Below, piece by piece: positions 1,719-31,198 of a stretch of 64,000 nt of DNA (position 1 is the first letter of the stretch; the number at the start of each line of letters is the position of its first letter). The notes under the pieces were generated by a model. It made no database searches. It was not told where the DNA came from and saw nothing but the letters and a program-made list of their open reading frames with translations. Both the position numbers and the translations under genes were made by a program. The stretch comes from an uncultured Gemmatimonadaceae bacterium (GTDB lineage: Bacteria; Gemmatimonadota; Gemmatimonadetes; Gemmatimonadales; Gemmatimonadaceae): contig CAWAGQ010000011.1 in the NCBI GenBank assembly GCA_963781585.1, forward strand, positions 224,001-288,000, read 5' to 3'.

Positions 1719-1849
1719 AGGATCGGATCGCTGGACTCGGTTGCGCTACGGAACAGCGGTCACTATTTGCTCCGCATTGGTGCGACGCCTTGGGACACTC
1801 GAATTCGCCTCAATAGGACGTCTCGCAACGGAGGCTGGTCTCGCTAACG

Positions 1850-4399: not shown

Positions 4400-4449
4400 C
4401 GCCGATGCCGCTCGGCCTACCTCTGCGTGCCAAGCGCCTGGCGGTCGGA

Positions 4450-5819
<1,370 letters not shown>

Positions 5820-5894
5820 ATACCTTACCGAAGATGGGGAACACTCCCTACGGCATTGCAGGATTCATGAGCATTCTTCAGCCAGGAGTCAACC

Positions 5895-7043: not shown

Positions 7044-8388
7044 CAGGATGATGAAAAACGGCAGGGAAGTGACGATTTCTGTTGTGGCTGCGCGTGCGAT
7101 GCGGCCGTCGGCAGTTCAGGGAGCGTCCCTTTGCGCGATCGCGGCGGCGATTCCGCGCGCTGGTCGACGTTAGGGGCATACGCGGGCCCGGATCAGGGTG
7201 CGGATCCGCACCAGATTGTAGGTGGCATTGGTGAACGTGAAGATCCAGCCGACCTTCTCGCGACCGCGATGCCGGAGTTTGCGCAGCAAGCCCACGGTTT
7301 TGTCCCAGCCAAAGCCTTGCTCCACCAGTTTCCGTTTGCGCTGACTGATCTCGTAGCCCGAGTGGCGGGTCGTCCGCGCGTCAATGGCGCTGCGAAGCCG
7401 GCGGGGGTGAATGTTCTGACTGACATGGGGCGTCACCCCCGCGTCCCGCGCCCGGTGACGAACGATTCGGTATCGTAGCCCTTGTCGGCCCCGAGGGTCC
7501 GGTGCGGCCGGTGGCTTTCCAGCGTGGTCAGCATCTCGAGCCCGGCCTCCTCCTCCGCATGCCCGCCCGGCGCGCGCACATCGGTCGCCACCACCAAGCC
7601 GTGGCGATTATCGATGATCACACTCGCCAGGTAGCCGAGAATCGCGGCGGTGTTTCGGCTCTTCCGGGCCAGCCGCGCGTCGGGATCCGTCCTCGACCGA
7701 TGCGTCGCATTCGACCGCTTCTCCCCCGGAAATTCACCGTCGGATTCTTCGGCCGACTCGCGGCATCCGCCTCCGCCGGTGGGGTGGGCCCCTGGGGTCC
7801 GTCGCCCCCCTCGGTGATCGGGCGAAAGCTCTTCTGGCTCGCCCAAGCTTCGAGGAGCGTGCCATCCACCGTGAAGTGCTCGTGCGAGAGCAACTGCCGC
7901 ACCTCGGCCTGCCGCTGGACCGCCGCGAAGAACGCGTGCGCGATGTCCCCCTCCAGGAGCCGCTCCCGGTTCTTCGTGAACACGGTCGGCACCCACACGG
8001 GCTCGTCGGGATTCAGTCCCACGAACCAGCGATAGAGGAGATTGTAGTCGAGTTCCTCCATGAGGCGCCGTTCGCTCCGGAGCGTGTACAGCACCTGGAG
8101 GAGGAGCGCCCGCAGCAAGTGCTCCGGCGGAATCGACGGCCGCCCGATCTTGGCGTACAGCACGTCAAATTGGGGGGACAGCTCGCGCAGCACGGGTTCC
8201 ACGAGCTGGCGGATCACGCGCAAGGGGTGGTCGACCGGGATCCGGTCCTCGACCGAGCGATAGCTGAACAGAATCGTCTGCTGGGGGCTCTCGCCGCGCA
8301 TACCGGGGACTCTCCATTGGGGTCGCGCCACGTTAGGCATCGCTCTCCCGTTCTGCAACAGCAAGTTTTCCACCCTTTTTCAGACCTG
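7044..8388 (-). mobile_element. IS5-family element; transposase 8301..7170 with frameshifts
   Basis: MRGESPQQTILFSY..DHPLR, GRPSIPPE, HFTVDGT, GADKGYD. Ends CAGGATGATGAAAAA and TTTTTCAGACCTG; CTAG on both flanks (7040-7043, 8389-8392). Confidence 0.9.
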
Positions 8389-9184
8389 CTAGGTTCGGTG
8401 TCAGGTGTAGTCTCATTGGACCTAGACGAAGTGCGGAATCGTGTCGCTCTAGGCCTGTTACCATCGCAATTTACAGCAGCCCGGGACGCTGCGCATCGGA
8501 TCTTGGCCGCGCAGGGGGTGGACACGGCAGCGCTCGTGTATGACTCGACCGGCGCTCCCAAAATGGATTCCGCTCCACCAACACTGACCAGCGAGACAAC
8601 CGATCCCCTGGCTGGGGGATTGTGGATGATAACCTACGACGGTGATTCGTTCTATGGCAACTGTACGCTCGGATTTGTAGCGCGGCGGAACGATACGTTA
8701 GGCTTCGTTTCCGATTCTCACTGCACGACGAGCTTTTTTGGAATCGGGCAGAGCTTAGGCGATTGGGTGCATCAGCTGGCGACGCGTGTTGTCGCCCGGG
8801 AAGCCGTCGATCCCGACGGCTACATCTGCGGCATTCTCTTGTTTGAATGCAGAGCCAGTGATGCCGCCTTCTTCTCGCAGTATCAGACTCAGCCGATGAC
8901 GGTCGGGTTGATATTAAGAACGCAGGCACCTACCGCTGATGGGTGGTCAGCAGGGCAAGGTTCAATTGCGGTGAACAGCACCCACCCCTACTTCTTCGTC
9001 ACTCGGGAAGAGAACGAGGACGTCTACACCGGCCAGGAGGTTCACAAGATAGGCGCGTATGGCGGCTGGACTAGCGGGGAAATAACTGGCACGTGTGTCG
9101 ACTACACGCCGGCGTACCCCCAGGAGATTCGTTGCATGTACAAGGCCACCTATTGGTCCACGGGAGGTGACAGCGGGGGCCCGG

Positions 9185-10388
9185 GGTAAGCTTCCCCGTC
9201 AAGGAGACCATTCGTACTCAGACGCTGCGGGGGCAGTGGGCCTCGGGAGAAAGGTGAGCGGCGGCACCCGCCCGAGGCTGTCGTGGGGCCGCTGCGTGTT
9301 GTAGGTCGTGAGCCACTGCGCGGTGAGGTCGCGCACTTCCGCGATGGACGTGAAGACGTAGGCATCCAGCACTTCGGTGCGATAGGTCCGGTTGAAGCGT
9401 TCGATATACGCGTTCTGCTGCGGCTTCCCCGGCTGGATGTAGAGCAGCGCGATGCCGCGCTGGGCGCACCACCGGGTGATCGCGATTGAGGTCAGCTCCG
9501 GGCCGTTGTCGAGACGCAGGCCACTGGGCTGGCCGTGGACCGCGACGAGATCATCGAGCACCCCGATGACCCGAATGCTCGGGAGCGAGCGCGCCACCTC
9601 GATGGCGAGGCCTTCCCGATTCCCCTCATCCAGGATGTTGCACGTCCGAAAGCTGCGGCCGTCGTAGAGGGCATCCGTCATGAAGTCGAGCGCCCAGATG
9701 TGATTGAGCTGGGCTGGGGCCGCCAAGGGATGCGGCACCCGCTTCGGACGCCGACGCCGCGTGCGCCGCGGCAGATTGAGGCGGAGCGCGCAGTACACGC
9801 GGTGGACGCGCTTGTGATTCCAGGCGTGGCCGGTGTTCCGCAACCGATCAAAGCACTTCCAGAATCCCCAGCGGCTATTCACGGCGACCACCGCCTGCAA
9901 CGCGTCGATCACCGGCGCGTCGTGGAGCACGCGCTCTGTGGGCGGGCGGTAGTAGGCCGCCCGCGCCAGTCGGACCAGCCGGCAGGCACCCCGCACGGAG
10001 AGGCCGTGCGTGCCGGCGAGGATCTCGACTGCCTCCCGCTTCGCGGACGGCGTCACAACTTTCGGCTCAGGACGTCTTTGATCGCCGCATTCTCCAGCGC
10101 GAGCTCGGCGTACATGCGTTTGAGCTTCGCGTTCTCCTGCTCCAGTTCCTTGAGGCGAGCCAGATCCTTCACGCTGGCCCCACCGTACTTCGACTTCCAC
10201 AGAAAGTAGGTCGGTCGGCTGATGCCGTGCTTCCGCACAATCTCCGGCACCGGAACGCCGGCCTCGCCTTCCTTCAGAATCGCGACGATCTGCGACTCCG
10301 TGAATCGGGACTTCCGCATGGATGATGCCTCCTGTAGGCACCCCGGAAAGTCCAACTACGAACGGTCTGCGCGGAAGGGGAGCTTACC
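9185..10388 (-). mobile_element. IS3-family (IS407 group) element; orfA 10319..10053, orfB to 9199
   Basis: OrfA MRKSRFTESQIVAIL; OrfB WALDFMTD, DNGPE, QNAYIERFN (DDE). Imperfect IRs GGTAAGCTTCCCC / GGGGAGCTTACC; 4-bp TSD CCGG. Confidence 0.95.
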
Positions 10389-11103
10389 CCGGTATTCATG
10401 TATGACTACGGTGGGTGCGCAATCGACAGCGTCATGGAATGCGTCGAGCTGCTGGGGCTACACGAAGCGCACTACAACAACGAGTCGATGTTCAGCAAGC
10501 TATCCCGCATCAAATCAGACTTGGGCGGAACGTGGTCCATAGTTTTTACGCCCGGCCTCGACACTCCCAACGTTAGCGGCACGGACGTCAATGGACATCC
10601 ATCTCTCAGTTGGAGCGGTGTTTCGGGAGCGTCATCATACGAAATCAGTGTCGGGTCCGGAAATCGTTGGCACTATCTTACCACAACAACCGCTACGTCT
10701 GCGAACTTTCCTGACGTGGACGTGGCTGAAGTCGGTGGCGCTGGGCCGTGGGTCACATACCACGTTGTTGCGCGGGGAGTGAGCAACTACTCTCAGGCCA
10801 GCAGCACGATCTATTTCACGCTCGAATCCGGAGGATCTCCGCTGTCAGTAAGCATGGATGGTCCGAGTTCCATCGATCCCAATGCCCAATGTACATGGAC
10901 TTCGTATGCGAGCGGCGGAGTGGGCAGCTATTCGTATCAGTGGTACCTGAATAGCCAGCCGATTCAGGGAGAATCGGGCGAGTCTCTCTCCTATAGCGGA
11001 TCGAATGCGCCCTATACGATTTCGGTGCGCGTTATTGACGAAGCCTCACACACGCAGACGGCGGACTTGTATGTGGCGTCACAGGTCGATGCGTGGTGCA
11101 ACT

Positions 11104-11373
11104 AGAAGTGGCCCCGGTCTTTTGAACAGGTGAGATAGCTGGACCGGCTGGCTCCACGAGCGAGATTTCGCTCATCCTCAGGCGACCGCACAAATGGCCC
11201 GACGTCCTCGCCGCAATCATGCTCCGGCCTTCAAGGCCAAGGTCGCCCTCGCCGCGCCCTCGGCAAGGCCGGCCTGCTCAGCGCCAAGCGATGATCGACC
11301 GGACGCATGCCTTGCCGATCACGCGTCAGGCGGCGGCGCTGGGAATCAGTCGCGGGGCGGTCTACTACACCCC
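11104..11373 (+). mobile_element. Internally deleted IS3-family remnant (left end plus scraps of orfA and orfB)
   Basis: GAAGTGGCCCCGGTCTTTTGAACA left end; MARRPRRNHAPAFKAKVALAA; MIDRTHALPITRQAAALGISRGAVYY. Confidence 0.75.
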
Positions 11374-11513
11374 CAGTTCGAACTCGGTCTTCGAACTCGC
11401 CCTGATGCGGTTGGAGCATGTTCGCGGCACTCTGATCGCTGGATTCCACCCAGATAGCACGAATGAAGCCGAGCAGTGGCGGGGCGTATCGTTGATCCAA
11501 TTCCCGCCACGCC

Positions 11514-12925
11514 GGTCAAGTGCAGAGGTGTGTGTAGAAACGGATCTTCTGGGTTGAGGGTCGTTAGGCAGTCTTCTGCATGAGCGACTGGGGATCAGGA
11601 ATGCGTTGGAGTTCTGCAGGATCGAGGTAACGTCGTTCCATCCACTGTTCGTTGCGTTCGATCGCGAGCGCCGTGCCGAGGCGCAGGAGGCTCGCATCGT
11701 TGGGGAAGATCCGCACCACCTTCGTGCGCCGTTGCATCTCCCCGTGTTCATGCTCGATCGAATTCGTCGTGCGGAGCTTCCGGCGGAGATCGCCGTCCGG
11801 CAAGAGATACACCGCCAACGTTTCGTGCGCGGTCGCCTCGAGCCACTCGGCCAGGGCGGGGAGCGGCTTCCGAAGACTCGTGATCAGGCGCGTCAGGCGC
11901 TCCTCGGCCATCTCGCGGGTGGGCGCCGCCCAGACATCGCGCAGCGCGGCGACGAGTTGCTGCTGCCGGCGCTCACCACTGACTTTCGCGAGAGCGTTCC
12001 GGAGGTAGTGCACCTGACAGCGTTGATGGACCGCGTTCGGGAAATACCGGTGCAGCGTGGTCGAGGCCCTGGTGTTCATCCGACACCACGTACTGGACGC
12101 CCGTGATCCCACGCTGCGTGAGCTGGGCGAAGACCTGGCCCCAGCTCTCGGCACTCTCGCTCACGCCAAGCCAGCAGCCGAGGTGTTCCCGATGGCCATC
12201 GGCCGTGATCCCAATGACCCAGAGCCTGGCCGTCGAGCGCACGTGCCCATCCCGCCGCACCTGCTCGTGGTGCGCATCGATAATGAGGATCGGGTACGTC
12301 GTCGCATCCAGCGCCCGACTGCGCCAGGCGGCGAGCTCCACGTCGAGCTTCTTCGCCAGGGCGCTCACCTCGGAGGCGGAGATCGTCGTGCCGCAGAGCT
12401 GCTCGACGATGGCACTCACCTTCCGGGTCGAAACCGCCTGCACGTACATCTCTTGGAGCGCAAGGACCAACGCCTTCTCACTCCGCTGGTAGCGCTGGAA
12501 GAGCGAGGGCTGGAAGCGGCCACTGCGATCGCGGGGAATCTGGAGCGTGAGCGGGCCGACCCGCGTCACCCACCGCCGCGTGCGATACCCGTTCCGCCAG
12601 CCCGTGCGCTGCGGCGTGCGCTCGAAGGCTTCCGCCCCGAGGAACGCGGTAAACTCGCGGTCGATCACGTCGTGGACAATGGTCGTCAGCATCTGGCGGA
12701 GCGCGTCGTCGGGGGCGGGCTCTTGTTCTCCCACCACGGTAAGACTACTCTTTCGATCGAAGGCCATCGTTGATCTGCTGGGTGTTGCGGGCGCGAACCC
12801 GCGGTGAAGGACTCTTCACCCCAGAAGATGAGCGGTGGTCTTTCTCTTTCAAGGCCCTTCGACTGCCTAACGGCAATCAAAGGCTCGACGCACCGCCGAT
12901 TCTACACAAACTTATGCACGCTCCC
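11514..12925 (-). mobile_element. IS256-family element; transposase 12767..11564 with one frameshift near 12060
   Basis: RNGYR, IPRDRSG, VSTRKV, VVSDEH, QRCQVHYLRN, TTNSIE. 26-bp imperfect IRs ending TGTGTAGAA; 8-bp TSD GCCACGCC at 11506-11513 and 12926-12933. Confidence 0.95.
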
Positions 12926-12941
12926 GCCACGCCTCGACCCA

Positions 12942-13998
12942 GGTGCAGGACGGTGCATACGGCGCCCTCGAGCATCTCAATTCGGTCACGTTAGGCATAC
13001 CGAGCGCCGACCTGGCCCGGAACGTCGACGAGCCGCTGGAAGAGATCGCCCACGAGTACTTCCACGCGTGGAATATCATGCGGATCCGGCCGGCGGAATA
13101 CCCGGCGGTGACGTGGGACGCGTTCCCGGCGGCCTCCGGGCTCTGGTGGAGCGAGGGGCTGACGATGTTCTACGCCGATCTGCTGCTCCGGCGGGCAGGA
13201 ATCCCGGTCGCACACCCCTCGCGTACCGCACACCTCGAGTCGCTGATCGCGCGGTATCTCTCGGAGCCGGGAGATTCGCATCTCTCGCCCGAGCGCGTGA
13301 GTCGTGGCGCCTACGGCGCACCCGACGCCCTCGGCGACTATCAGGCCTCGACCCACCTGCAAGGCGAGTTGCTGGGCGCGATGCTCGATCTCATGGTGCG
13401 AAGTGCCACGCGCGGCACGCGGACCATCGACGACGTGATGCGTCTGATGATGCGCCGATACGGCGGCGCGGTGGGATTCCACAGTGGGGACATCGCTGGC
13501 GTGGTGGCGGCGGTCTGCGGGTGCGAGATGAAGACTTTCTTCGACACCTACGTGCGCGGCGCCGCGCCGATCGACTTCAACCGGTTCCTCGCCCTGGTCG
13601 GACTGCGGGTCGACATCACCAGGAGACCGGCGGTGGACGAGCGTGGGCAGCCGGTGCCGAACCGGCGGATCTATGTGTTCAATCCGGCGACGGACGCGTC
13701 GACGCGTCTGCTGCTGAGCGATCCCGAGAGCGAGTGGGGGAGAGCCGGATTGCACAGCGGCGACGTCATCATATCGATGAACGGGGCGAGTGTGCCGAGC
13801 TTCGCGGCGTTTCGCCAGATGGTGGCAGGCTGGCGCGTGGGCGACAGCGTGCGCGTCGTGGTGTCACGGCCCACCGGTCGATATTCGGCGACCGTGGTCA
13901 TCGGGCAGGCGCAGCAGGTCACCGCGCGGATCAGCGAGATCGACGGGGCCAGCGCGGCGGCGCGCAAGCTGAGGGTGGAGTGGGAGGCGGGGCGGTGA
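12942..13998 (+). pseudogene. 5'-truncated duplicate of the M61 peptidase gene (copy of 3343-4399)
   Basis: Near-identical over 1057 bp (offset 9599) with a few substitutions (HET vs HPS, AAERK vs AAARK); no signal peptide. Confidence 0.9.
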
Positions 13999-14101
13999 GG
14001 CGGCTGGCGCGGCGCTGACCGGCAGTCATATAGTAGTGCTGGGCGGGCGTTAGCAGCCAAGCCCAATCAAGGGCCGTGACAACAGGGATGGCTGAAGACT
14101 G

Positions 14102-15235
14102 ATGATCACGACACGCCCGGCAATTCCACACGCGGCGTTCTCGGCGTTGTTGCTGTTGTCGGCGCCTGGAGGGAGCGCGGCACAGCCGAGTCGCGTCATC
14201 CGGATTCCTGACGAGCCGTCGTGCGCACGGTGCACCATCACAAGCCGCACCGTCGTCACGATGGGAGCAGACGCCGGCCCGGGCGCGTTGAACTTCGGTC
14301 CCGCGCTGGTTCGCGTGGATGGACGCGGCCGGTATTGGGTCAGAGTCGGTACGGACCCGCCTCGCCTGTTCGACAGCGCGGGACGATTTCTTCGCATGGC
14401 GGGGCGATCCGGCCAGGGGCCGGGCGAGTTCTTTCACCCATACTTCTTTCTCGCCCTCCCCGGTGACTCGATGCTGGTGGTGGACGAGGGATTCGCGACC
14501 GTCTTCGACGCCGACTTGCTGGATGATCGCCGCATCACGACGCGCGCGACGCTCTATCCGACGATCATACTGTCCTGGCCTGGCGACATCATCGCGGTCG
14601 GCAACCGCCCCGGGCCGACGTGGGGAGTGAATCGCGTGCATCGCGTGTCCCTCGCCGGCCGGGACCTGCAGTTCCTCGAATCACTTCCACGCGACTCCTC
14701 TCCTCCGCTGCGCCAGCCGTACCCACCCAACCTGCTCCAGGTTCTTGCGGTGAGCGGACCGAATTCATTCTGGACGGCCGACCGCACTCTCTACGACGTA
14801 CTCAGATGGACGAGGGACAGCGGCTTCGTTCAGGTCTTGCAGCGTCGCCCGCGCTGGTTTGCCGATCGCTCGAAGTTCGGAATTGGGAATCCCAGGGAAG
14901 CACCGCAGCCGCACCTGGTCGCCTTGCATCAGGACGAAGCCGGACGCCTGTGGGTCTACTCGAAGATTGCCGCCGACAGCTGGCGATCAGCCTGGGATCG
15001 AGTCCCGCCGGGGGCCGTTGAAGTACCCGCGACGCAGATCGACCAGGAGAAACTGTTCACGCCCGTTGTCGAGGTGATTGACCCTGTCTCGGCGACCGTG
15101 ATTGCCCGGCAGTTTCTGGGCAGGGATCTGTCCGATGTTCTGCCTTCCGGCCGGGTCGCGTCCTACGAGGTGGATGCGAATGGTGTTGGACGCCTGACGA
15201 TCATGGAGCTCATCATTTCGGGGACTGGAAAGTAG
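14102..15235 (+). CDS. Secreted 6-bladed beta-propeller protein with N-terminal CxxC
   Basis: Signal peptide; PSCARCTI; GRSGQGPGEF; DEAGRLWV. Paralog of 36131..37306. Confidence 0.75.
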   Translation: MITTRPAIPHAAFSALLLLSAPGGSAAQPSRVIRIPDEPSCARCTITSRTVVTMGADAGPGALNFGPALVRVDGRGRYWVRVGTDPPRLFDSAGRFLRMAGRSGQGPGEFFHPYFFLALPGDSMLVVDEGFATVFDADLLDDRRITTRATLYPTIILSWPGDIIAVGNRPGPTWGVNRVHRVSLAGRDLQFLESLPRDSSPPLRQPYPPNLLQVLAVSGPNSFWTADRTLYDVLRWTRDSGFVQVLQRRPRWFADRSKFGIGNPREAPQPHLVALHQDEAGRLWVYSKIAADSWRSAWDRVPPGAVEVPATQIDQEKLFTPVVEVIDPVSATVIARQFLGRDLSDVLPSGRVASYEVDANGVGRLTIMELIISGTGK

Positions 15236-15372
15236 TCACACTCCGGCGAGGGTTGGCCGAGACGCCGACGAATGAGCATGCAAGGGGAACACTGGCATCC
15301 CCAGCGGGTGACCTGGCCCCGTTTCTTCATGAACGGAGGGGAAGCGGAGGTCGCGCGCCAGACGATGGCCGA

Positions 15373-18072
15373 CTACTCGGCGCGGATCGCTGCGATCGGA
15401 TCGGTGCGGGCCGCCCGGATCGCCGGCAGCAACGCGGCGATGACTCCAACCCCGAACAGGAGCGCGATCCCCGTTCCCAGGGCCATCGGATCGTGCGGCG
15501 AGAGGCCGTACACGAGACTCCGCGTCAGCCGCAGCAGCGGGAACCAGAGGACGAAGCCCGCCACGAGTCCCCCGGCGATTGTCCGCAGTGAATCGCGCAA
15601 CACGACCCACGACACCGCCGCCGGCGAGGCGCCTAACGCAAGCCGCACGCCCATCTCGTTCGTCCGCCGGGTCACCGAGTAGCTGATCACCCCGTACAAC
15701 CCGATCGCCGCGAGCAGCAGCGCCAGCACACCGAAGCTCCCCGCCAACCGCGCCACCATCCGCTCGGTCGTCAATCCCCGCTCGAGCAGTTGCTCGACCA
15801 CCATCACGTCGCGCACGGGAAGGTTGGGATCCACCGACGCGAGCGCCGTCCGGATTCCGGAGATCGCGGCCTGCGGCGCACCGGTCGTACGCGCCTCGAC
15901 GCTGGTGATGTATTCCTGCGGGCGCTGCGCCAGCGGGTGGAACACCAGGGACGCCGGCGCCTCGCGCAGGCTGTTGACGCGGACATCGCGCACCACGCCC
16001 ACCACCTCGAGCTCCGGCGGCGTGTCATATCCGAAGTGCTTCCCGACCACCGTGTCCGTGCCGAAGAATCGTCGCGCTGCGGTCTGGCTGATCACCACAA
16101 CCTGAGGGGCGTCCCTGGTGTCGCGATCGGTGAAGGCTCGGCCGCGGACCAGGGGGACGCCGACCGTCTGGAAATAGTCCGGCGTCACGAAATCCTCCTG
16201 CCCGGGTTTGGTCCCGGTCGCTTGTTCGCGGCCGGGCACGGTGAATCCGCTGGTTCGCCGCGATCCGGTCCCGAGCGCGTGGTCCGACAGACTCGCCGAC
16301 CGCACGCCGGGCACCGCCCGCACCGACGCCAGCAACCGGTCGTACAGCGCCGGCAGTTGCTCGAAGGTGTAGCCGGCGGCGCGCAGGTCGAGCTGCGCGG
16401 TCACCAGCCGCTCGCGCTCGAACCCGGGGTCGATGCTCAGCAGGTTCCGGAATGTGCGCACGAACACGCCTGCCGAGGTCACGAGCACCAGCGAGAGCGC
16501 GATCTGCGCCATGACGAGCAGACGTCCGAGCGGCAGCCGATGCGATTGGGGTGCGGAAACCACTCGCGTTCCGCCCTTGAAGCTGTCGTGCAGATCGGTA
16601 CGGGCCACGCGCAGCGCGGGCGCCAGGCCGAAGAGCAAACCGGCGACGATCGTCACGCCGAACGCGAACGCGAGGACGCGTCCGTCGAGCGACGCGTCGA
16701 GCGGAATGGCCCGGGAGCCCGTGGATGCCAGACGCAGCAGCGCCCGCGTCGCCCACTGGGCGACGCCGAGCCCGAGCAGTCCGCCGATGATCGCGAGCGT
16801 GAGGCTCTCGGTCAGCGTCTGGCGGACGAGTCGTCCGGGCCTGGCGCCGAGGGACACGCGCACCGCCATCTCGTGCGAGCGTGCGGCTCCCCGCGCGAGC
16901 AGCAGCCCGGCGAGATTCGCGCAGGCGATGAGCAGGATGAGACCCACGCTCGCCATCAGGGCACGCAACGGATCACCGAATTCCTCGCGCAGCGGCGAGA
17001 ATCCACGGCTGATCGGTTGCAGCAAGACGTGCGCACGCGACCAATGCGCCCGGGTCGCCGAGTCGCTATTGGCCAGCTCGGCGTCGAGGTTCGCGCGGAA
17101 CGGCAGGTCGAGACGTGCCGCGATGGCGCGTGCCTGCGCCGGATCGACCCGCGCGACCAGGGTCAGCCAGCTCATGCCGCTCTGCGGAAGCCACGGTTGA
17201 CCGGGGTCCGCGTTCGACGCGCCGAAGTTCGAGATCCAGTGCAGGTTGTGCTGCATAACGAGCGGCACGAACAGGTCCATCGTCTGACCAACCGTGAGTC
17301 CACGGAACCCGACCTGGGCGACGCCGATGATCGTGAGCGGTACGCCGTTGACGCGCATCGTGCGGCCTATGACCGACGGATCGCGTCCGAAGCGCCGGTC
17401 CCAGAAGCTCTCCGTGATCACGGCCACCGGCCCGCCGCCTAACGTGCGGTCGTCGTCGGGACCGATGAGGCGGCCGGCCAGGGCGCGAACGCCGAGCATG
17501 GAGAAGAATCTCCCGGAGACCAGCTGCGCGGCGACCGCCTCCGGCCGGTCGCCGATCGTGGCGTAGAGCCGCGACACCGAGGTCATGGCGCCGATGCGGA
17601 GGGTATCCGGCAGCGCCTGCTGGTACCGGAGCATCAACGGGTGCGACACCAGGTCATTGTCGTCGTCGATGCCCGTTCTCGTGATCGTGTGCAGCTGTTC
17701 GGGACGCGCAACGGGCAGGGCCCGGCGCATCAGCGCGTCGAGGATGCTCCAGACCGACGTGTTGGCGCCGACGCCGATGGCGAGTGTCAGCGCGGCGGCG
17801 ACGCTGAAGCCGGGCGACCGCGCCATGGCGCGCAGTGCATAACGCGTGTCGTGCCACCAGTCCTCGATCCACCGCGTACCGCGCGCATCGCGGGTGCTCT
17901 CCTTCACCTGCTCCAGGCCGCCCAGGTCGACGCGGGCCCGCCGGCGCGCTTCGGCGCGCGAGACTCCGAGGCGCTCGAGGTCATCGGCGGCGGTGTCGAG
18001 GTGGAACTGGAGCTCCTTCTCCAGCTCACGCTCCAGTGCCCGGCGCCGGACGAGACGGGTGATCCACGACAT
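15373..18072 (-). CDS. ADOP-family duplicated ABC permease (MacB/FtsX-like)
   Basis: ERELEKELQFHL prefix domain, [38 protein letters not shown]. Confidence 0.93.
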   Translation of the reverse strand: MSWITRLVRRRALERELEKELQFHLDTAADDLERLGVSRAEARRRARVDLGGLEQVKESTRDARGTRWIEDWWHDTRYALRAMARSPGFSVAAALTLAIGVGANTSVWSILDALMRRALPVARPEQLHTITRTGIDDDNDLVSHPLMLRYQQALPDTLRIGAMTSVSRLYATIGDRPEAVAAQLVSGRFFSMLGVRALAGRLIGPDDDRTLGGGPVAVITESFWDRRFGRDPSVIGRTMRVNGVPLTIIGVAQVGFRGLTVGQTMDLFVPLVMQHNLHWISNFGASNADPGQPWLPQSGMSWLTLVARVDPAQARAIAARLDLPFRANLDAELANSDSATRAHWSRAHVLLQPISRGFSPLREEFGDPLRALMASVGLILLIACANLAGLLLARGAARSHEMAVRVSLGARPGRLVRQTLTESLTLAIIGGLLGLGVAQWATRALLRLASTGSRAIPLDASLDGRVLAFAFGVTIVAGLLFGLAPALRVARTDLHDSFKGGTRVVSAPQSHRLPLGRLLVMAQIALSLVLVTSAGVFVRTFRNLLSIDPGFERERLVTAQLDLRAAGYTFEQLPALYDRLLASVRAVPGVRSASLSDHALGTGSRRTSGFTVPGREQATGTKPGQEDFVTPDYFQTVGVPLVRGRAFTDRDTRDAPQVVVISQTAARRFFGTDTVVGKHFGYDTPPELEVVGVVRDVRVNSLREAPASLVFHPLAQRPQEYITSVEARTTGAPQAAISGIRTALASVDPNLPVRDVMVVEQLLERGLTTERMVARLAGSFGVLALLLAAIGLYGVISYSVTRRTNEMGVRLALGASPAAVSWVVLRDSLRTIAGGLVAGFVLWFPLLRLTRSLVYGLSPHDPMALGTGIALLFGVGVIAALLPAIRAARTDPIAAIRAE

Positions 18073-24207: not shown

Positions 24208-24570
24208 TCAGGGAGCAGTCGTCCTCGCCGACCGGACACGCACGCGCGTCCGCTCCACCGTCACGAGCGCGCCCGCCTCCAACTCAGCGCCGTACTGTGC
24301 CAGCGCGCTCACACAAATGGCACCCTGCTCCTGGGCCCGGAAACCGACAATCCGCACGATTCCGGTATGGGGGATACCGCGGACGATCGTCAGTTCGCCG
24401 AAATCCTTGTCGAGGGTCAGGACGACTGCCGACTCACGCACGGCGTGTGCAAGAACCTCTTCGTCGCCCGGGTCAGCCGGCCAGTCTCCCACGCAGTCGA
24501 CTTCGTGACCAGCGCCAACGAGTACTTCCCGCGCACCGGACCACATGCAACTGTCGAGCAGGAGCCTCAC
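24208..24570 (-). CDS. DUF5615 PIN-like toxin
   Basis: MRLLLDSC..D..VLTLDKDFGEL. Confidence 0.85.
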   Translation of the reverse strand: MRLLLDSCMWSGAREVLVGAGHEVDCVGDWPADPGDEEVLAHAVRESAVVLTLDKDFGELTIVRGIPHTGIVRIVGFRAQEQGAICVSALAQYGAELEAGALVTVERTRVRVRSARTTAP

Positions 24571-24827
24571 GCCGCGGAATCGATGAGCGGCGGTTCCACC
24601 CGTTCGTGGGCGACCAGGCGGTGCGCGTAGCTCAGGCAGGCACGGATGTCATCCTGCTCCAGCCAGGCATAGCCGGCAAGAATCGTCTCCGGTGTGTCAC
24701 CCGCTGCCAGCATGCCGAGGACGTGCTCAACAGCCAAGCGGCGGCCCCGAATGATCGGCTTGCCACCAAAGATCCTCGGATTGACGGTGATCCGGAGAAG
24801 AAGCCCGTCTTCGTCTTGATCGGTCAC
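24567..24827 (-). CDS. DUF433 antitoxin
   Basis: ITVNPRIFGGKPIIRGRRL..DIRACLSYA; 4-nt overlap with the toxin gene. Confidence 0.88.
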   Translation of the reverse strand: MTDQDEDGLLLRITVNPRIFGGKPIIRGRRLAVEHVLGMLAAGDTPETILAGYAWLEQDDIRACLSYAHRLVAHERVEPPLIDSAA

Positions 24828-24953: not shown

Positions 24954-25487
24954 TCACGGCTTCAGCGGCGGCGCCGGCGGCACATCGTCCCAGTTGATGA
25001 TCGCGTTGAACACCATGTTGAACTCTCCATGGTTCTGCCACCGGTAAATCGGATGGTTCGCGAACAGCAGCACGCGCCCCTTCCCGTTATGCGCCTGCGG
25101 CACGTCGACCACAAACGCCCGCCCCTTGATGTTGTCGGGTTCGCCTTTCCTGCCGGCGTATCCGACGTACTTGCCGTGTTCGTCGTAATGCCGGACTGTC
25201 AGCGAGCCGTCATTCGCCACCGCCAGTCGCCCGTCAGTGAGCCGTACGACGCCGTTTACCCGCAGCAACTCATAGAGCGAGTCGCCGACCAGGCCAGGAT
25301 CCAGCGCACTACCGATTTGCAGGATTGGCGTTGGCGACAGTCGCCAGGCGCGAGCACCGCTCATGGCCGGCTGCGCATTCTCGACAACGCGAACCCCAGC
25401 GCTGTCTCGCGAGGTTTGCGCCAGGGTCCCGGGCGAGACGATCAAGAATCCGCCCAGTATCAGGGCACAGAGTCTGACGCCGTGCAT
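24954..25487 (-). pseudogene. In-frame chimera: 5' part of a beta-propeller gene fused to a duplicated M14 peptidase 3' end
   Basis: RDSAGVRVVEN..GRKGE is followed by DNIKGRAF..PPLKP. 24954-25138 matches 27993-28177 with 6 mismatches. Confidence 0.85.
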
Positions 25488-25529
25488 CTCAACGACCCGT
25501 TTGTCATGGTGGCTTGCGACCTCCGAGCA

Positions 25530-26369
25530 CTACCGCGTCCAGACCAGCGTCGCGCCACACAACCGGCCCCGACGCGTTGGATTGTATTGAGCGGGAACCT
25601 CCGAGACCCGGTACATCTCTACCGCTAGGACCTCCCTGGGAAGGAAGAGCACGTCCAGTCCGTTCCGATACGGCTGCGACACCTCCGCGCGCTTCTGCGA
25701 CTGTCCCGGAAAGGGCGCCAGGAGGTCCGGGACATCGACCTTGATGCCGTTGATGTACAGATTGGTGGTGCACACTTCCCGGCCGGTGAGCGTAATCAGG
25801 TCCTTCAACAGAGAGAGCTTCTCGATCCTCTCGCTCGTCACGAATGCGCGCGCCGGCGCACCGGTCGTCATCTGCCGTTCATAAAAACCGTTCAGCTGCA
25901 GCGCACGAATGGTATCGCCCGGGTGTCGAGGTGTGGTTGCACGCGTGAGAACCGTGGGTAGCGTCTGGGTCTGGCGCTTGAGCAGTATGGTGATTGGAAC
26001 GGTGTCCCGACTGGAATTGGCCGCGTAGAACATCTGGGGGGCGTACCCGATCTTCCGGACCTGGATCAGCGAACCGAGCGTATCCACGAACGACAAGGCG
26101 ATCAGCCCGGCCCTGTTGGTTGTCGCCGATCTCCTGGTACGCATGTCGGTCACCTGCGCCTCATCGACGGGTTCACCGCTCTCGAAGTCGAAGACGCCGA
26201 TGACGCGACCGAGACGTGGTTGCTGCGGCGGCACCGCGAGGAGACTGCTCTGCGCGAAAGCGGGAAATGGAGCGAGGGCGTGTGCCAGACCGCACGCGAC
26301 AAGAAGCACTACAGGCACCACCGAGCGAACGGTTCGCATCGATCCCGGAGGCGTCAGTTCTTCAGCCAT
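25530..26369 (-). CDS. Secreted carboxypeptidase-regulatory-like protein with C-terminal plug-like domain
   Basis: Signal peptide; GVFDFESGEPV, VRKIGY, GFYER, LYINGI, VLAVEMY..CGATLVWTR. Confidence 0.75.
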   Translation of the reverse strand: MAEELTPPGSMRTVRSVVPVVLLVACGLAHALAPFPAFAQSSLLAVPPQQPRLGRVIGVFDFESGEPVDEAQVTDMRTRRSATTNRAGLIALSFVDTLGSLIQVRKIGYAPQMFYAANSSRDTVPITILLKRQTQTLPTVLTRATTPRHPGDTIRALQLNGFYERQMTTGAPARAFVTSERIEKLSLLKDLITLTGREVCTTNLYINGIKVDVPDLLAPFPGQSQKRAEVSQPYRNGLDVLFLPREVLAVEMYRVSEVPAQYNPTRRGRLCGATLVWTR

Positions 26370-26950
26370 ACCACGACGGAGCCGATCATGAGTCGCGGAT
26401 TGACCTCCCGGATCGGCGGGGCGATGTTGTGCGCCGTCTGCGCCTGCGCGTCACGACGGGGTTGCGGCAGCTCGTCGGTGGGCGACGCGTTCGCCCGGAA
26501 CTGTCCGCAGGGCGGCTGGCCCGAGACTGGGCGAACGTCGCCCCGTCTGTTCTTCAGGCTGCGATCCTGCGGCGTGTTCAAGCCATAGATCTCGATTACC
26601 ACCATATCATCCACGCTGATCGCGTCGAGCGACCACCCGTGCGGCATCTCGTGTCCATTTACCCAGATGCAGGGATACGCCTTATCCATGGGGTTGCTGA
26701 GCGCCGCCGGATGGAACCGCAGGTCCTTGATGATCAGGGAGCGCGCGTGAAGCATCGTCGTCAGGATGCTGGCCCTTGGATTCGACCCCAGTTCACTCGG
26801 TGGCACCAGGACGCTGGCGTAGCCGTCGGCGTGCACTCGCGAATCGAAGTCCTCCCACAATTTGTCCTGACGATGCGACTGGTGCGCTGAGCGCTCGAGC
26901 CGAGTGCGCAGATATTGCGGGAGCTTCTCGTACTGGTCGCTCCGAAGCAA
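26354..26950 (-). pseudogene. 3' fragment of a carboxypeptidase-regulatory/plug-like paralog
   Basis: DFDSR, VLVPPSEL, CIWVNG, VVIEIYG, CG, VVVWLKN; N-terminal domains missing. Confidence 0.65.
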
Positions 26951-27204
26951 CGACACTACCGCCGGCAATGCTCGCGCCACCGCTGCCTCCGTGACCAGCA
27001 TTCGCCGCGGCTACCTCACCCACCGTCCCGCGACGGTTTCATGACCTCAGGCCTGGAATCAGAGAAGTTGGGCGCTTCGTGAATACGCGTCAACGCGCCA
27101 TCGCGGAACCGTTGGTGGCCTTCCTCACCCCCGGGGTAGACGACGGTCCCGGGCGAAAGGCGTTGGCGGGGTGCAGGCGCCTTCCACCCAGGCCTTGCCC
27201 GTTA

Positions 27205-27236
27205 ATGCCATAGATAGCATATTCCCTCTATGGCAT
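27205..27236. promoter_or_regulatory. Candidate TA autorepression operator
   Basis: Perfect 10-bp inverted repeat ATGCCATAGA / TCTATGGCAT overlapping the toxin ATG. Confidence 0.6.
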
Positions 27237-27589
27237 GGGAGGTGGAATACACGAACGAGTTCGGGTTGTGGTGGACCATCCTTACGGCCGACGAACAAGA
27301 ATCGGTCAGCGCGGCAGTTGGACTGATCGAGTCGCTCGGCCCCCATATCCCGTTCCCATACGGCTCGGGGGTGGAAGGGTCTCGCCATGGACGAATGCGG
27401 GAGTTGCGAGTGCAGGATGAGGGGCGGCCCTACCGTGTGTTCCATGCATTTGATCCACGCCGCATGGCGATTCTGCTGATCGGTGGTGACAAGACCGGTG
27501 ACAAACTGTTCCATGAACGTATGGTGCCGATGGCTGACCGGCTGTACGACGAACACCTGGAGACTCTGCGAGGAGAGGGACCACTCTAA
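27230..27589 (+). CDS. RelE/HigB-like (Gp49-type) toxin
   Basis: WEVEYT..GSRHGRMRELR..AFDPRR.AILLIGGDK. Confidence 0.88.
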   Translation: MAWEVEYTNEFGLWWTILTADEQESVSAAVGLIESLGPHIPFPYGSGVEGSRHGRMRELRVQDEGRPYRVFHAFDPRRMAILLIGGDKTGDKLFHERMVPMADRLYDEHLETLRGEGPL

Positions 27590-27912
27590 TGGCAAACAAG
27601 TTCGGCGACTTGCGGAAGAAGATGGCGCCTGACCATCAGGCGCGCGCCGGGGCACGGACCAAAGCCATGCTGGACGGGATGGCATTGGCTGAACTCCGCC
27701 GCGCCCGTGAGCAGTCGCAGGAATCGCTGGCTGCGGCGATGAAGGTATCGCAGCCCGAAATCTCGAAGCTCGAGAAACGTGCAGACACCTACATCAGCAC
27801 GCTGCGCAAGTACATCGAAGCGTTAGGCGGATCGCTGGAGATTGTGGCGCATTTCCGGGAGGGCGACGTGCGGATTACGCAGTTTGGTGAGCTCGAGGAC
27901 GCGCACGCCTGA
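27589..27912 (+). CDS. XRE/HigA-like HTH antitoxin
   Basis: LAELRRA..SQPEISKLEKRAD..STLRKYIEALGG; TAATG overlap with the toxin gene. Confidence 0.88.
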   Translation: MANKFGDLRKKMAPDHQARAGARTKAMLDGMALAELRRAREQSQESLAAAMKVSQPEISKLEKRADTYISTLRKYIEALGGSLEIVAHFREGDVRITQFGELEDAHA

Positions 27913-27992
27913 CGGAACGGACGGCATCCATGGCAGAGTTTTTCAGCAGGCTGCTGCTCGTGCCACTCCAGACTGACTCCCCACAGTTTCAT

Positions 27993-30900
27993 TCACGGCT
28001 TCATCGGCGGCGCCGGCGGCACATCGTCCCAGTTGATGATCGCGTTGAACACCATGTTGAACTCCCCATGGTTCTGCCACCGGTAAATCGGATTGTTCGC
28101 GAACAGCAGCACGCGCCCCTTCCCGTTGTGCGCCTGCGGCACGTCGACCGCGAACGCCCGCCCCTTGATGTTGTCGGCGCCCACCATCAGCCCGCTCAGC
28201 ACCGACGCATCGCCGCCCACGTACTCGGCCAGCACGTTGGCCTGATCGGCCACCCCCACCCGGAAGACCTGCGACCCCTGCCCGTACTTGATCGGGAAGA
28301 TCTTGCTGGCATATCCATAGAACACCGGGTGCTCGGGACGCGTGATCTCCGCCTGGATGAGCGGCTTCTGCGCGTTCACCCCCTGCGGTGACTCGAGATC
28401 GATCGACCGGGCGAGGCCGAAGTCGATGGGATAGCGCACCGCCTGCAGCGTGGTGATGAGCGTGCCGCCGGCGTCGAGGAACTTGCTCGATCGCCTTCAC
28501 CCCGGCCTCACCGAACCCGCCGCTCATGTCGTCGGTGGATCCGTACATGCCGAGGAACTGGTACTTGTCGCTGTGCTGATAGGGCTGCGGCCGCGCGGCC
28601 GGCGACGCGAGCACCGCGGCGCGGTTGATGTTCTGCGCCGCCATCACGATCACGTCGTAGTCCTTCTCCAGATTCCCCTGGGCGACGCGTTCCTTGAAGA
28701 TCAGATCGTACGGGATGCCGAACTTGTCGAACGTGAACCGGTACCACCCCAGCTCCTGCGTCCCGCTCCACTGCGAGTAGATCGCCACCCTCGGCACGTC
28801 GGCATTGTGCGAGGGCACCGCCGGCACGGTCGACAGCGCCGCCGCGGTCAGGCCTAACGACTCGGCCGCCGAGCGCGCCGTCTGGAGATCGGCCGCGGAG
28901 CCGGTCACGATGAACGACCCGGCGCGGAAACGTGTCGTTCGCGGCCACGAACTGCTGCTCCGCAACCTGCATCGGGACGTTCTTCAGCCGGTAGCGGAAC
29001 GTGATCATGTTGTTCGACCCGTAGTGCGCCACCGCGAGACCGGCCGTACCGGATCCCGCCACCGTCCCGTGCACGACCACCGTGTCCACCGGCGTCACCT
29101 TCGCGTCGAGCACCGCCTTGTCGTCGATCTGCTTGACGTCGACGTTGAACGCGTACCCCATCGACCAGCCGCTGTCGTCGTACGTGGAGAGGTTGGGGTC
29201 GGGATAGTCCTGGCGCTCGAGGAAGTTCTTCGCGAGCCGGCCATACGGCTGGTTCAGCTTGATGACATACGACCCCGCCGGATAGGCGACGCTGTCGAGC
29301 GTGACCGGCCCGGTGAGTCGCCCGATCTCGATCCCCTGCGCGCGCAGGATGTTGAGCAGCGTCGCGACCCTGGTCATGTCGCGCTGCACGGGGAAGACGT
29401 AGCCGTAGGGCGCCCTGGTCTTGCCGTCGTTGATCGAGTTGCGGGTCTTCACGTAGAAGTTCTCGACCACCAGGTTCGGGAACATCGACGTGAGCTGGAG
29501 CGCCGAGAGCACTCCGGTCTCCATGTAGTTGGTATTGTTGCGGCGCGAGAAGGTCTGCACCGCGTTAGGCGGAATCGGGATGCCGCGATACCACTCGCGC
29601 GGCTGGCCGCCGCCGCGCCCCGTGGGGGCGCCGCCCCTTCCGCCGAACCCGCCACGCCCTCCGCCAGCGCCTCCACGTCCGAATGGCGTCTCGGCGGTCC
29701 CGCCCGCGGTGGAATCCGCGACGGCACCCCGGCCGCCGCGTCCGCCCCCGCCCCCGCCCCCGGCCCCGCCCCCGCCGGCTCTGCCTCCACGACCACCACG
29801 ACCGCCACCAGCCCGGCCGCCACCGCCCGCCGCTGTCGTGTCAGTCGCGCCGCGGCCACCCCGGCCACCCCGGCCACCCCCCGCACCGCGACCGCCGCTC
29901 GCGACCGTGGTGCCGCCCTCGGGCGCGTCAACGCCCGACTGCGTCTCGTACATCTTCATCATGCCGTTATGATTGTATGCCACCGAGCCGAGGTAGCCGG
30001 GCGACCAGCCGTCCATGAACGCGTGGGTGTACACGCCCGGCATCCCCCACTTGGTCATCTGCGCCAGCTCCCAGTTGGAAAAGAACGGTAGCTCGGCGAA
30101 GAGCAGCGGATCGAGATTGGGATTCTGCGGAGGCCCGCCGCTGTACGTGTACATCAGGGCCTGCGCCTCGTGCAGGTCGTGCATGATCGGCGGATGCGCC
30201 GTGAAGTACCAGTCGGTGATCGCGCGCATCGACATCTGCGAGAGGTTGATGTCGCGATTGTTGTCGTGATAGACGTACTTGCCCCAGTAGGGAAGTCCGC
30301 CGATCAGCCCGCCGCGACCACCGCCTCGTCCGCCTGCGCCAGCTCCACCGGCCCCGCGGCCACCACGTCCCGCGGCGGTGGTGTCGCGTCCCGCGGCCGC
30401 GGTATCGCGTCCCGCGGCGGTGGTGTCGCGTCCCGCGGCAGTGGTGTCGCGTCCCGCGGCGCTGTCGCGCGCCACCTGTGCCGCGACCTCGAGGCCGCGA
30501 TAGAACCAGTCCACATTACGGTCGCGCCCGTCAGGCTCGGCGGCCGGCGTGACCGAGACGTAGACGTTGTCGCGGATCTGGGTGATGAGGGGTGACGTCT
30601 CCGTCGCGAGCCGGTAGACCAGCTCCATCAGCATCTCCGACGGCCCCGTCTCGCCGCTGTGCAATCCACCGATGAGGTGATAGTGCGGCTTGGTGGTGGC
30701 GATCAGCTCGCGAATCTGCGCGTCGGAAAGCCCGCGCGGGTCGGCGATCTTCGCGAGGTTGGCGCGATTGTGGGCGAGATTCCGGATGTTCTCTTCCGAC
30801 GAGACCCAGACGACGACGAGCTCGCGTCCCTCATCGGAGCGGCCAATGGTCTCGACCTTGACGCGCGGCGTCGCCTTCTCGAGGGCGCGGTAGTACTTCA

Positions 30901-31198
30901 GGATGTCGGCGTAGTAGGTGAGCTTGCGCGGCGCGCCGATGTAGTAGCCGAGGATGTCCTTCGGCGTGGGGATGCCGGCGACCTTCGGGAGATGGTCCAC
31001 CAGCGGGCTGCCGTATCGCGGCTCGGTGGTCCACGCGGCGTAGTCCTTTGCGAACTGCGCGTCCTGCGTCTGCTTCGGATCGCGCGTCTCGGTCACCATC
31101 TGCTGCGCGGGGAGCGCAGAGGCGGCGGCGAGGAAGAAGAGCGAGGCGCCGTGTACGAGCTTCACCGAGCGGCGTGGGATCATTCGTCCGACATTCAT
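27993..31198 (-). CDS. M14-family zinc carboxypeptidase with Gly/Arg-rich inserts; two apparent +1 indels at about 28925 and 28490
   Basis: HSGE, DGRDR, DNNRD, HDLHE motifs; three consecutive ORFs are collinear with the family architecture. Confidence 0.85.
30366..30467. repeat. 21-bp coding tandem repeat (4 units plus 1 partial) encoding RDTTAAG
   Basis: CGTCCCGCGGCGGTGGTGTCG-type units at 30366, 30387, 30408, 30429 and 30450. Confidence 0.9.

Follow-up and report, generated by a model that had tools for sequence, protein, structure and literature searches.

Why is the 3' end of an M14 zinc carboxypeptidase-family gene present twice in this DNA, once on the gene itself and once on the far side of a group of accessory genes? 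Self-comparison of the window (the whole stretch analysed, 64,000 nt) placed a direct repeat at 24954-25138 and 27993-28177, 185 bp long with six mismatches (96.8% identity), a start-to-start spacing of 3039 bp and 2854 bp in between, one of only five direct-repeat families of at least 60 nt in the 64-kb window. The pair gave a BLAST E value of 1e-82 against the whole 5.7-Mb genome, in which these two are the only near-identical copies of the 185-bp tail. On the plus strand both copies open with TCA, the TGA stop of the minus-strand ORFs 24954..25487 and 27993..28439; identity breaks off at this stop codon and, at the inner end, after a common CC. The coordinates, mismatch count and stop-codon boundary reported by the first-pass annotation are therefore exact, and the M14-tail duplication is a genuine recombination scar. 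The features concerned are as follows.

24208..24827, minus strand: second TA-like pair, DUF433 (24567-24827) and DUF5615 (24208-24570), directly downstream of the distal tail
24954..25138, minus strand: displaced copy of the M14 3' end (tail copy A, distal), which forms the 3' portion of a chimeric ORF of 177 aa
25139..25487, minus strand: 5' fragment of a propeller-family gene (codons 1-116, including its signal peptide) that runs in frame into tail copy A
25530..26369, minus strand: intact plug-like gene, 279 aa, with signal peptide; weak CarboxypepD_reg matches, under the cut-off
26354..27001, minus strand: chimeric 5'-truncated plug-like gene, 215 aa, with a start like a protein on contig C7 and a plug-like remainder
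27230..27589, plus strand: RelE/HigB-like toxin gene (Gp49/DUF891), 119 aa; Pfam PF05973, E 1.1e-12, 48 bits
27589..27912, plus strand: XRE-type HTH antitoxin-like gene, 107 aa; Pfam HTH_37, HTH_3 and HTH_31 (PF13744 and PF01381 over the cut-off)
27993..28177, minus strand: tail copy B (proximal), comprising the final 61 codons and the stop of M14, contiguous with the gene body
27993..31198, minus strand: M14 zinc carboxypeptidase-family gene, about 1068 codons; Pfam PF00246

The M14 gene carries a PF00246 Zn-carboxypeptidase domain (51 bits against a cut-off of 21.6) and, in each aligned segment, is about 60-73% identical in amino acids to intact orthologs, 994-1060 aa long, in four genomes (G003, G016, G035 and G334). 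Two 1-nt insertions, near 28930 and 28485, spread its reading over three frames; tblastn and the sequence place the frame switches there, and the extra base at 28485 is missing from one public contig. Proximal copy B completes the gene and retains the consensus residues A (77/80 orthologs) and N (80/80), at which distal copy A has V and H, so that substitutions at near-invariant or invariant positions among the 80 orthologs number two in the distal copy and none in the proximal one. In a collection of 15 billion proteins, the chimeric product of 177 aa stands as a singleton. Judged from its sequence, the distal copy is a decaying, non-functional relic fused to a truncated propeller gene.

Between the copies lie the genes named by the first-pass annotation, a RelE/HigB-XRE pair, one intact and one 5'-truncated plug-like gene and a 3'-truncated propeller gene; the description can be refined in that the 5'-truncated plug-like gene is chimeric and the propeller fragment is joined in frame to the distal M14 tail. 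The RelE/HigB-like and XRE/HigA-like genes, small, adjacent and co-directional, with the toxin stop and antitoxin start overlapping at 27589, are predicted to form a type II toxin-antitoxin (TA) pair. Homologous pairs occur in other contexts in genomes G004 and G017. The XRE gene is convergent with M14, and 80 nt separate their stops. Residues ~10-42 of the 215-aa product are similar to the C-terminal part of an unrelated protein of 1254 aa encoded on contig C7 (window 26905-26991, 79% nucleotide identity), and the remainder aligns with the C-terminal ~45% of CarboxypepD_reg/plug-like proteins of ~370 aa. Family members of the intact 279-aa gene, at up to 50% identity, occur in 29 of 301 genomes surveyed from the order, and a search of the genome_contigs collection gave no close relative. 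The propeller fragment, whose family is weakly linked to DUF5128/NHL, is 68% identical in amino acids to a 460-aa paralog on contig C14, the match ending at residue 116, which is the joint. Beyond the distal tail, the second TA-like pair was assigned by Pfam to DUF433 (PF04255, E 1.4e-21) and DUF5615 (PF18480, E 8e-15).

We consider it somewhat probable that this structure arose through one homologous exchange within M14 and one illegitimate join. A single novel joint would be needed, from propeller codon 116 to M14 position -185, while the outer junctions (M14 stop to the XRE side and M14 stop to the DUF433 side) would be the native gene ends of two related haplotypes that carried different accessory genes behind M14; homologous exchange within M14 together with illegitimate end-joining would then yield the product. 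The route could have been homology-facilitated illegitimate recombination (HFIR), repair of a break at -185 in which a related template was copied before end joining sealed the break, or integration, by a single crossover, of a fragment that had re-circularised. Campbell-type insertion-duplication, in which circular DNA carrying a chromosomal fragment integrates by a single crossover, leaves precisely this arrangement, an insert between two directly oriented target fragments, via host homologous recombination; however, it requires a circle already joining the propeller fragment to the M14 tail, and the M14 locus shows no sign of such a circle. Illegitimate joining is supported by the second in-frame chimera in the cargo, the 215-aa plug-like gene. 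The genome encodes Ku and, with regard to the DNA uptake that HFIR would require, ComEC, although this gene is widespread (10/14 control genomes). By the junction criterion for HFIR there is a single novel joint with 2 nt in common, the homologous junction being visible only with parental sequences; so short a microhomology speaks against the model. TA pairs on both sides would bias the surviving products: recombinants that replaced or later excised a resident pair would be killed, and additive products would persist and stack behind the gene. The TA pair would thus counter-select excision, as the first-pass annotation had suggested. The exact end of identity at the stop codon is not predicted by the exchange-plus-join model but would be expected if an element brought in an att site restoring the end of the coding sequence.

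Such a site would belong to a site-specific integrative element, decayed or cis-mobilisable with its integrase in trans, of which the cargo would be a remnant; the element's att would include the last 185 bp of M14, the copies would be attL and attR, and integration would restore the gene. This model expects the repeat to extend from a fixed crossover point and to finish precisely at the stop codon, as observed, and is consistent with restoration of the consensus C-terminus by the proximal copy. Genomic islands and integrative elements that occupy the 3' ends of protein or tRNA genes are familiar, as are cis-mobilisable derivatives lacking an integrase; there, as here, the direct repeats are the 3' end of the target and the gene-side copy restores the gene. 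The genome itself holds a classical-looking case on contig C10, where a 12.8-kb island is enclosed by 109-bp repeats (97%) made of the 3' half of a tRNA, and a genome-wide search for tyrosine-type recombinases (PF00589) gave 11 matches. However, all of these lie elsewhere, with none on the 444-kb contig C11 that contains the locus, and Pfam detected no transposase or recombinase domain on any cargo ORF. Moreover, the breakpoint does not recur in relatives, a distal tail copy standing there in 0/80 metagenome loci (a count that leaves out seven genome loci), and the same architecture at M14, S9 and RND targets would require several integrases. The cargo ends are broken genes: the distal joint cuts the propeller gene mid-domain, and with the other gene fragments in the cargo this looks like illegitimate joining. 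We therefore regard a site-specific element as unlikely. An insertion sequence (IS) or composite transposon was also considered and rejected, the cargo having neither a transposase gene nor terminal inverted repeats at its ends.

The stop-codon boundary can be accounted for in another way. In three pairs of tandem whole-gene paralogs in this genome (80-88% identity), similarity likewise ends within 1 nt of the stop codon, and the boundary would therefore be an outcome of homology limited to the coding sequence. On this basis the structure could have originated in situ, from an older local duplication or tandem M14 paralog that was mostly deleted, leaving the 185-bp tail on the propeller gene; gene conversion with the live gene would then preserve similarity as far as homology extends. 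Local direct repeats are indeed common, with 46 pairs spaced 0.5-30 kb genome-wide against two inverted HSP rows within 30 kb. However, the genome has no second ortholog-level M14 copy, the next paralog being 45% identical in the tail; the distal copy bears relaxed-constraint substitutions rather than signs of homogenisation; and more events would be needed than for exchange plus join. An origin in situ thus seems quite improbable.

The sequence could also join two strain haplotypes linked by the assembler or by a chimeric read, a structure present in no cell. The assembly has 17 contigs, an estimated contamination of 7.2% and clustered frameshifts, and one public sequencing run contains a second M14 haplotype (95-97% identity), as well as one contig that departs from the assembled sequence 30 nt into the distal tail. 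Yet the novel joint between propeller gene and M14 tail has only 2 nt in common, so no k-mer path accounts for it, and it is in frame. The same architecture occurs at other loci of the genome, at conserved sites the distal copy has diverged from the proximal one in the manner of a relic, and the public run yielded 151-nt contigs identical to the cargo and its flanks, although that run may itself come from the source sample. On the other side, this run, the one public run found, consists of short contigs, and none of those shown spans a joint. We judge an assembly artefact to be very improbable.

Comparison of the sequence downstream of M14, as the first-pass annotation had proposed, was carried out on 80 metagenome loci; the genes found there have no synteny to the window, and none of the 80 loci carries any cargo gene or TA gene. 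A single M14 tail is present in 79/80, the exception (L106) having a 113-bp tandem repeat. Among the matches listed for 401 genomes of the family, a second ortholog-level tail match appears only in G562, on short contig ends. In the same-genus genome G001 the M14 region is missing; its contig ends inside the region and keeps only an 18-residue relic of the plug gene. Neither an empty site nor a donor arrangement was found in any genome or contig compared.

With one homologous exchange and one illegitimate join as the preferred origin, the structure appears to fit "insertion with long target duplication", known for restriction-modification (RM) systems (PMC2853133). In the cases reported there, RM systems had entered without any other mobile element and with target duplications of 46-423 bp; some of these overlap the 3' end of a gene, one insertion came with a gene fusion, and Furuta, Abe and Kobayashi (2010) suggested double-strand breakage for these long duplications (PMC2853133). 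The class is described there by flanking repeats longer than 30 bp, here 185 bp at 96.8%, around an insert shorter than 20 kb without other mobile-element genes, here 2854 bp. Shared as well are a repeat far longer than transposon target duplications, an addiction-type module as cargo, a repeat at the 3' end of the neighbour and a gene fusion. R and M genes also belong to that description, whereas the M14 cargo has no RM domains and consists of a type II TA pair plus gene fragments, so that the cargo itself does not cut DNA and the likeness concerns the insertion mode, not the cargo. In further contrast to the RM insertions, which are defined by an empty-site genome, no such genome was found for the M14 locus among those compared, and its repeat lies wholly in coding sequence and ends at the stop codon.

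Related behaviour is reported for chromosomal RM systems, which resist allelic replacement (PMC3874152), and for transformation with lethal cassettes, which gives recombinants retaining a duplication (PMC3784515). Orphan-immunity arrays of the Vibrio cholerae T6SS have been attributed to HFIR (PMC5361080). Like these arrays and Rhs C-terminal displacement (PMC5361080, PMC3240628), the M14 locus would combine one conserved anchor with one illegitimate join and no integrase, new modules entering beside the conserved gene, older ones being pushed downstream and selection for the protective gene keeping them. However, in those arrays variable toxin tips and immunity genes are displaced, while at the M14 locus a near-identical, housekeeping-type peptidase tail is involved and the TA pairs are retained.

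The first-pass annotation had proposed a recurrent, integrase-independent mechanism anchored in conserved secreted-peptidase genes, with two events within 28 kb, and genome self-alignment for direct repeats as a check. The self-alignment shows that the architecture recurs: on contig C12 the tail of an RND pump brackets a DUF433-DUF5615 pair, followed by Phd-PIN, and on C4 an S9 peptidase tail brackets a propeller-family gene, both integrase-free, and on C8 a DPP-IV/S9 segment has TA pairs after both copies. Recurrence without an integrase thus stands for the M14 cargo and for C12 and C4, but IS genes are present in the cargo of 2/5 partial-copy cases. The RND pump means that targets are broader than peptidases alone. 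The other supposed event, at an M61 gene, lies inside a 15-kb block adjoining tRNA-Asn that is missing next to tRNA-Asn in G001. Because the block carries transposase genes of the IS3 and IS256 types, it is not established that one mechanism acted twice within 28 kb.

Taken singly, the M14 locus is an ordinary scar, of a type already known for other "addiction" genes. Duplicated-tail scars are unusually frequent beside TA pairs in this soil bacterium: of the 26 TA marker genes, encoding PIN or DUF433 proteins, 11 have a copy of a local direct repeat less than 1 kb away, against a random expectation of 0.9 and a maximum of 6 in 2000 trials, an association that may come partly from islands rich in both, two of the repeat families near TA genes being IS- or integrase-bearing elements. 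It is conceivable, though we advance it only tentatively, that in this Gemmatimonadaceae lineage TA operons spread as integrase-free cassettes, entering conserved genes at their 3' ends, with target duplications of 100-300 bp, and stacking with the newest nearest the gene; a recombinant that lost its resident TA pair by replacement or excision would die, so that host recombination and end-joining would give only additive products. If so, addiction modules would turn allelic replacement into additive insertion, a TA counterpart to the life cycle proposed for RM systems, and duplicated gene tails would be datable scars, minable across genomes to gauge how much gene gain recombination drives in uncultured soil phyla. 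They would also account for orphan gene tails and chimeric ORFs that are annotated as hypothetical proteins. If the link holds, it would provide a simple, testable rule for how accessory modules gather behind conserved genes without mobile-element machinery.

The cargo also contains one copy of the genome's own over-represented octamer, at 27821-27828 inside the XRE gene, which suits a donor of the same lineage.

Alignment of the two tails of the M14 peptidase gene bore out, in both coordinates and counts, the 185-bp repeat with 6 mismatches that the first-pass annotation had described as ending at the stop codon. The direct repeat pairs 24954-25138 (the distal copy) with 27993-28177 (the proximal copy) without gaps, at a spacing of 3039 bp, and on the plus strand each copy opens with TCA, a TGA stop read from the other strand. 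Past the stop codon the flanks of the two copies are unrelated, and at the inner end their identity ends after a common CC. When the tail was compared with the whole genome (5.7 Mb in 17 contigs, 67% G+C, completeness 93.5%, contamination 7.2%), these two were its sole near-identical copies (E 1e-82), and the next-best match to the M14 tail was a 73%-identical paralog on contig C13. The tail duplication is a real feature. We also considered whether the tail end is a dispersed genomic site and rejected this, since its last 30 nt had no occurrence in the genome outside the two copies. Pfam, ORF and paralog comparison recovered all of the cargo claimed to lie between the copies, namely a RelE/HigB-XRE pair, one intact and one 5'-truncated plug-like gene and a 3'-truncated propeller gene. 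The features are as follows.

31198 to 27993, minus strand: M14 peptidase gene (PF00246, Pfam)
27993..28439, minus strand: 148-aa ORF ending in the stop of the proximal copy
27589-27912, plus strand: XRE-type gene, converging on M14, its stop 80 nt from the M14 stop
27230-27589, plus strand: Gp49/RelE-HigB-like gene, its stop overlapping the XRE gene start
26354-27001, minus strand: 215-aa plug-like ORF without a signal peptide
25530-26369, minus strand: intact 279-aa plug-like gene with a signal peptide
24954..25487, minus strand: 177-aa ORF ending in the stop of the distal copy
24208-24827, minus strand: DUF433/DUF5615 pair directly downstream of the distal tail

The six differences between the copies comprise three third-codon-position changes and three replacements. 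Metagenomes scanned with the C-terminal ORF of M14 yielded 80 loci (best 86% aa), and at two of the replaced sites these orthologs have A in 77 of 80 and N in all 80; the proximal copy carries A and N, the distal copy V and H. On this pattern the distal copy is a drifting relic and the proximal copy the working end of the M14 gene. The M14 gene of the window reads in three frames, with 1-nt insertions near 28930 and 28485, and in four relatives (G003, G016, G035 and G334) its ortholog is one uninterrupted ORF (994-1060 aa). Because a contig from a public run does not have the extra base at 28485, because M14 orthologs of other assemblies are also frameshifted (three in G239, one each in G182 and G197), and because 3 of 11 RND pump genes are split in this assembly while about 18 kb of further long ORFs in the window are intact, consensus errors, concentrated in certain genes, are the probable source of the insertions rather than decay, pseudogenes being the alternative. 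Orphan M14 tails, suggested by short tail ORFs in a 90% cluster, were dropped for want of support: the three comparable short-frame matches among family genomes (G239, G182 and G197) are frameshifted M14 genes. Two ortholog-level tail matches in G562 both lie at short contig ends.

Two of the cargo ORFs are composite. Residues 16-151 of the 215-aa ORF resemble the C-terminal part of CarboxypepD_reg/plug-like proteins of about 370 aa (comparators a C13 paralog and the gene after M14 in G334, 28% identity, pairwise E 3e-8), and residues ~10-42 resemble the C-terminal region of a 1254-aa protein on C7 (79% nucleotide identity over 87 nt); the ORF is thus a composite of two gene fragments, a chimera. 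In the 177-aa ORF, residues 1-116 are a propeller-family N-terminus, 68% identical to a 460-aa paralog on C14 whose match ends at residue 116, and they are fused in frame to the final 61 M14 codons. The label 'propeller' is weak, as it comes from DUF5128/NHL matches in paralogs that rise above cut-off only in a 692-aa paralog in the window, and an NCBIfam search gave no name for the propeller or plug families. Apart from distant paralogs the cargo is unique in the genome, and its third-position G+C is 0.70-0.86 versus 0.92-0.96 in the M14 tail. An octamer, CGTTAGGC, has 17 sites in the window (e.g. 3390, 27821, 28852 and 29563) versus about one expected from shuffles; as a marker of the joints it was rejected, being absent from the repeat joints and having its sole cargo copy inside the XRE gene.

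Among the relatives, genome_contigs and metagenome loci compared, neither an empty site nor a donor arrangement was found. A DNA search of 40 relatives found M14 orthologs in other genera only, with flanks that are not syntenic. Across 301 genomes of the order the best hit to the 279-aa cargo protein was 50% identical and conserved neighbours were absent, and a genome_contigs scan with its gene gave no relative. The 40-relative and family-genome tallies include the unpublished-flagged G008, G316, G317 and G365, which no specific claim uses. The 80 metagenome loci contained no RelE, XRE, plug, DUF433 or DUF5615 homolog at E <= 1e-6, and extra M14 tail copies occurred in a single one of them, L106 (8370-8770, another organism), where a 113-bp unit, covering the final ~70 nt of the M14 ortholog and the hairpin downstream, is present in about 3.5 tandem copies. 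In an exact-protein look-up (~15 billion proteins) the chimeric 177-aa ORF and the cargo proteins were singletons. The same-genus genome G001 is collinear, in reverse, with window 243-24048 and then diverges, its contig ending 775 nt later; the sole trace in that end stretch is a 52-nt (18-residue) relic of the 3' end of the 279-aa plug gene.

Among the M14 orthologs found, the closest (G334:C4, locus L122, 5177-9566; 87% aa in the tail) is followed after 83 nt by a full-length 374-aa plug-like gene, and this neighbour suggests that the plug-like genes behind the window M14 may have long stood there and not have been imported as cargo. Of 56 loci with 1.5 kb or more of sequence downstream, G334 alone had such an adjacency, and a conserved M14/plug-like adjacency was rejected on this count. 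As cargo, propeller-family genes vary within this genus. In G001 (contig C3, locus L033, 1761-2990) an extra 409-aa propeller-family gene lies between the permease and alpha/beta-hydrolase genes, where the window has 220 nt. Reads were neutral as evidence: one public run had a 0.05 share of words and gave short contigs, and among those listed none crosses a joint. In run X1 one short contig matches the DUF433-side flank, runs through the final 30 nt of the distal tail (to 24983) and goes on for 120 nt that are absent from this genome; it could derive from a further haplotype whose tail relic is shorter, or be a chimeric unitig.

These arrangements could be explained with a sole novel joint, from propeller codon 116 to M14 position -185, the start of the repeated tail counted from the gene end. 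The two stop-codon junctions may then be original gene ends, contributed by two related haplotypes that differ in the accessory genes behind M14, and the structure would reflect one homologous exchange in M14 and one illegitimate join. The route might be homology-facilitated illegitimate recombination (HFIR), break repair from a related template closed by end joining (the genome encodes Ku), or the entry, by a single crossover, of a fragment that had re-circularised. This exchange-plus-join model is weakest on the regular boundary at the stop codon, and two rivals that predict such a boundary were kept. One is a site-specific element bearing its own att site; the cargo ORFs had no recombinase or transposase domain in Pfam, all 11 PF00589 matches in the genome lie on contigs other than C11, which carries the window (224001-288000), and no inverted repeats were found at the cargo ends. 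The other is homology limited to the coding sequence, followed by gene conversion.

The genome self-alignment proposed as a check, for direct repeats ending at stop codons, yielded 46 distinct pairs at spacings of 0.5-30 kb, with only 2 inverted HSP rows within 30 kb. In nine of the 46 the repeat stops no more than 3 nt from the stop codon of the best coding frame; whole-gene tandem paralogs (80-88% identity) account for three, and the other six are partial copies, of the M61, permease, M14, S9 (C4) and DUF2442 (C8) genes and one on C2. An RND pair ends 4 nt from the stop. The nearest parallels, all on other contigs, are as follows.

C12: ~135 bp from the 3' end of an RND pump gene (92%), bracketing DUF433-DUF5615, with Phd-PIN next
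C4: ~190 bp from the 3' end of a 1004-aa S9 peptidase gene (92.6%), bracketing a full-length propeller-family gene
C8: near-3' 320-bp DPP-IV/S9 segment (89%) in two copies, with Phd-PIN after the gene, RHH-PIN after the distal copy and an IS21-like gene in the cargo
C10:166000-185000 (locus L117): repeats 3305-3413 and 16147-16255 (109 bp, 97%), a tRNA 3' half and hairpin around a 12.8-kb island

In the distal S9 copy on C4 the stop is mutated to TGG. On the C10 island lies a defence-like set of genes (SNF2/ResIII-like, and Multiubiquitin plus ThiF/E1-like), and the ORFs tested there included no integrase.

Secreted-peptidase genes, the anchors that had been proposed, are not the only ones, since the RND pump tail on C12 is also duplicated. 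The 'first case', at the M61 gene, was not borne out as the same kind of event. In G001 the tRNA-Asn (window 291-365) has its 3' end directly against the stop codon of an FtsX-type permease gene (window 15373), and G001 therefore lacks a 15-kb block, window 366-15372. This block contains the following.

Full M61 gene, with 1057 bp of its 3' part present a second time (99%)
Copy of the 3' part of the permease gene (896 bp, 87%)
9199-10341: IS3-type rve gene
11973-12767: IS256-type transposase gene

The M61 case may thus have an island or IS history. The suggested recurrent, integrase-independent, homology-anchored mechanism stands in outline, with no integrase match in the cargo or on C11 and similar cases on C12 and C4, and fails in detail on the M61 case and on peptidases as the sole targets.

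The closest described class is the 'insertion with long target duplication' of restriction-modification (RM) systems (PMC2853133). That report gives repeats of 46-423 bp and no other mobile genes, with some repeats overlapping a gene's 3' end and one gene fusion, and calls the insertion mechanism unknown. Full-text literature searches aimed at other questions returned no description of such insertion of toxin-antitoxin (TA) pairs, and we do not claim its absence. We infer that TA pairs may have a role in shaping such structures, from the genome-wide TA-repeat association and published analogues: chromosomal RM systems are reported to resist allelic replacement (PMC3874152), transformation with a lethal cassette to yield recombinants retaining a duplication (PMC3784515), and HFIR has been invoked to explain orphan immunity arrays (PMC5361080). 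The association is the part worth following. Among 26 TA marker genes (20 PIN, 6 DUF433), 11 have a repeat copy no more than 1 kb away, against a mean of 0.9 and a maximum of 6 in 2000 trials of random placement; islands rich in both TA genes and repeats add to this count, as do IS- or integrase-bearing repeats. A 2.5-kb element on C7 (172257-174768 and 182856-185367; copies 99.7% identical) carries a tyrosine-recombinase gene (303-aa frame), with a third identical-scoring recombinase match at C13:~309060, and a PIN gene lies 240 nt from one copy.
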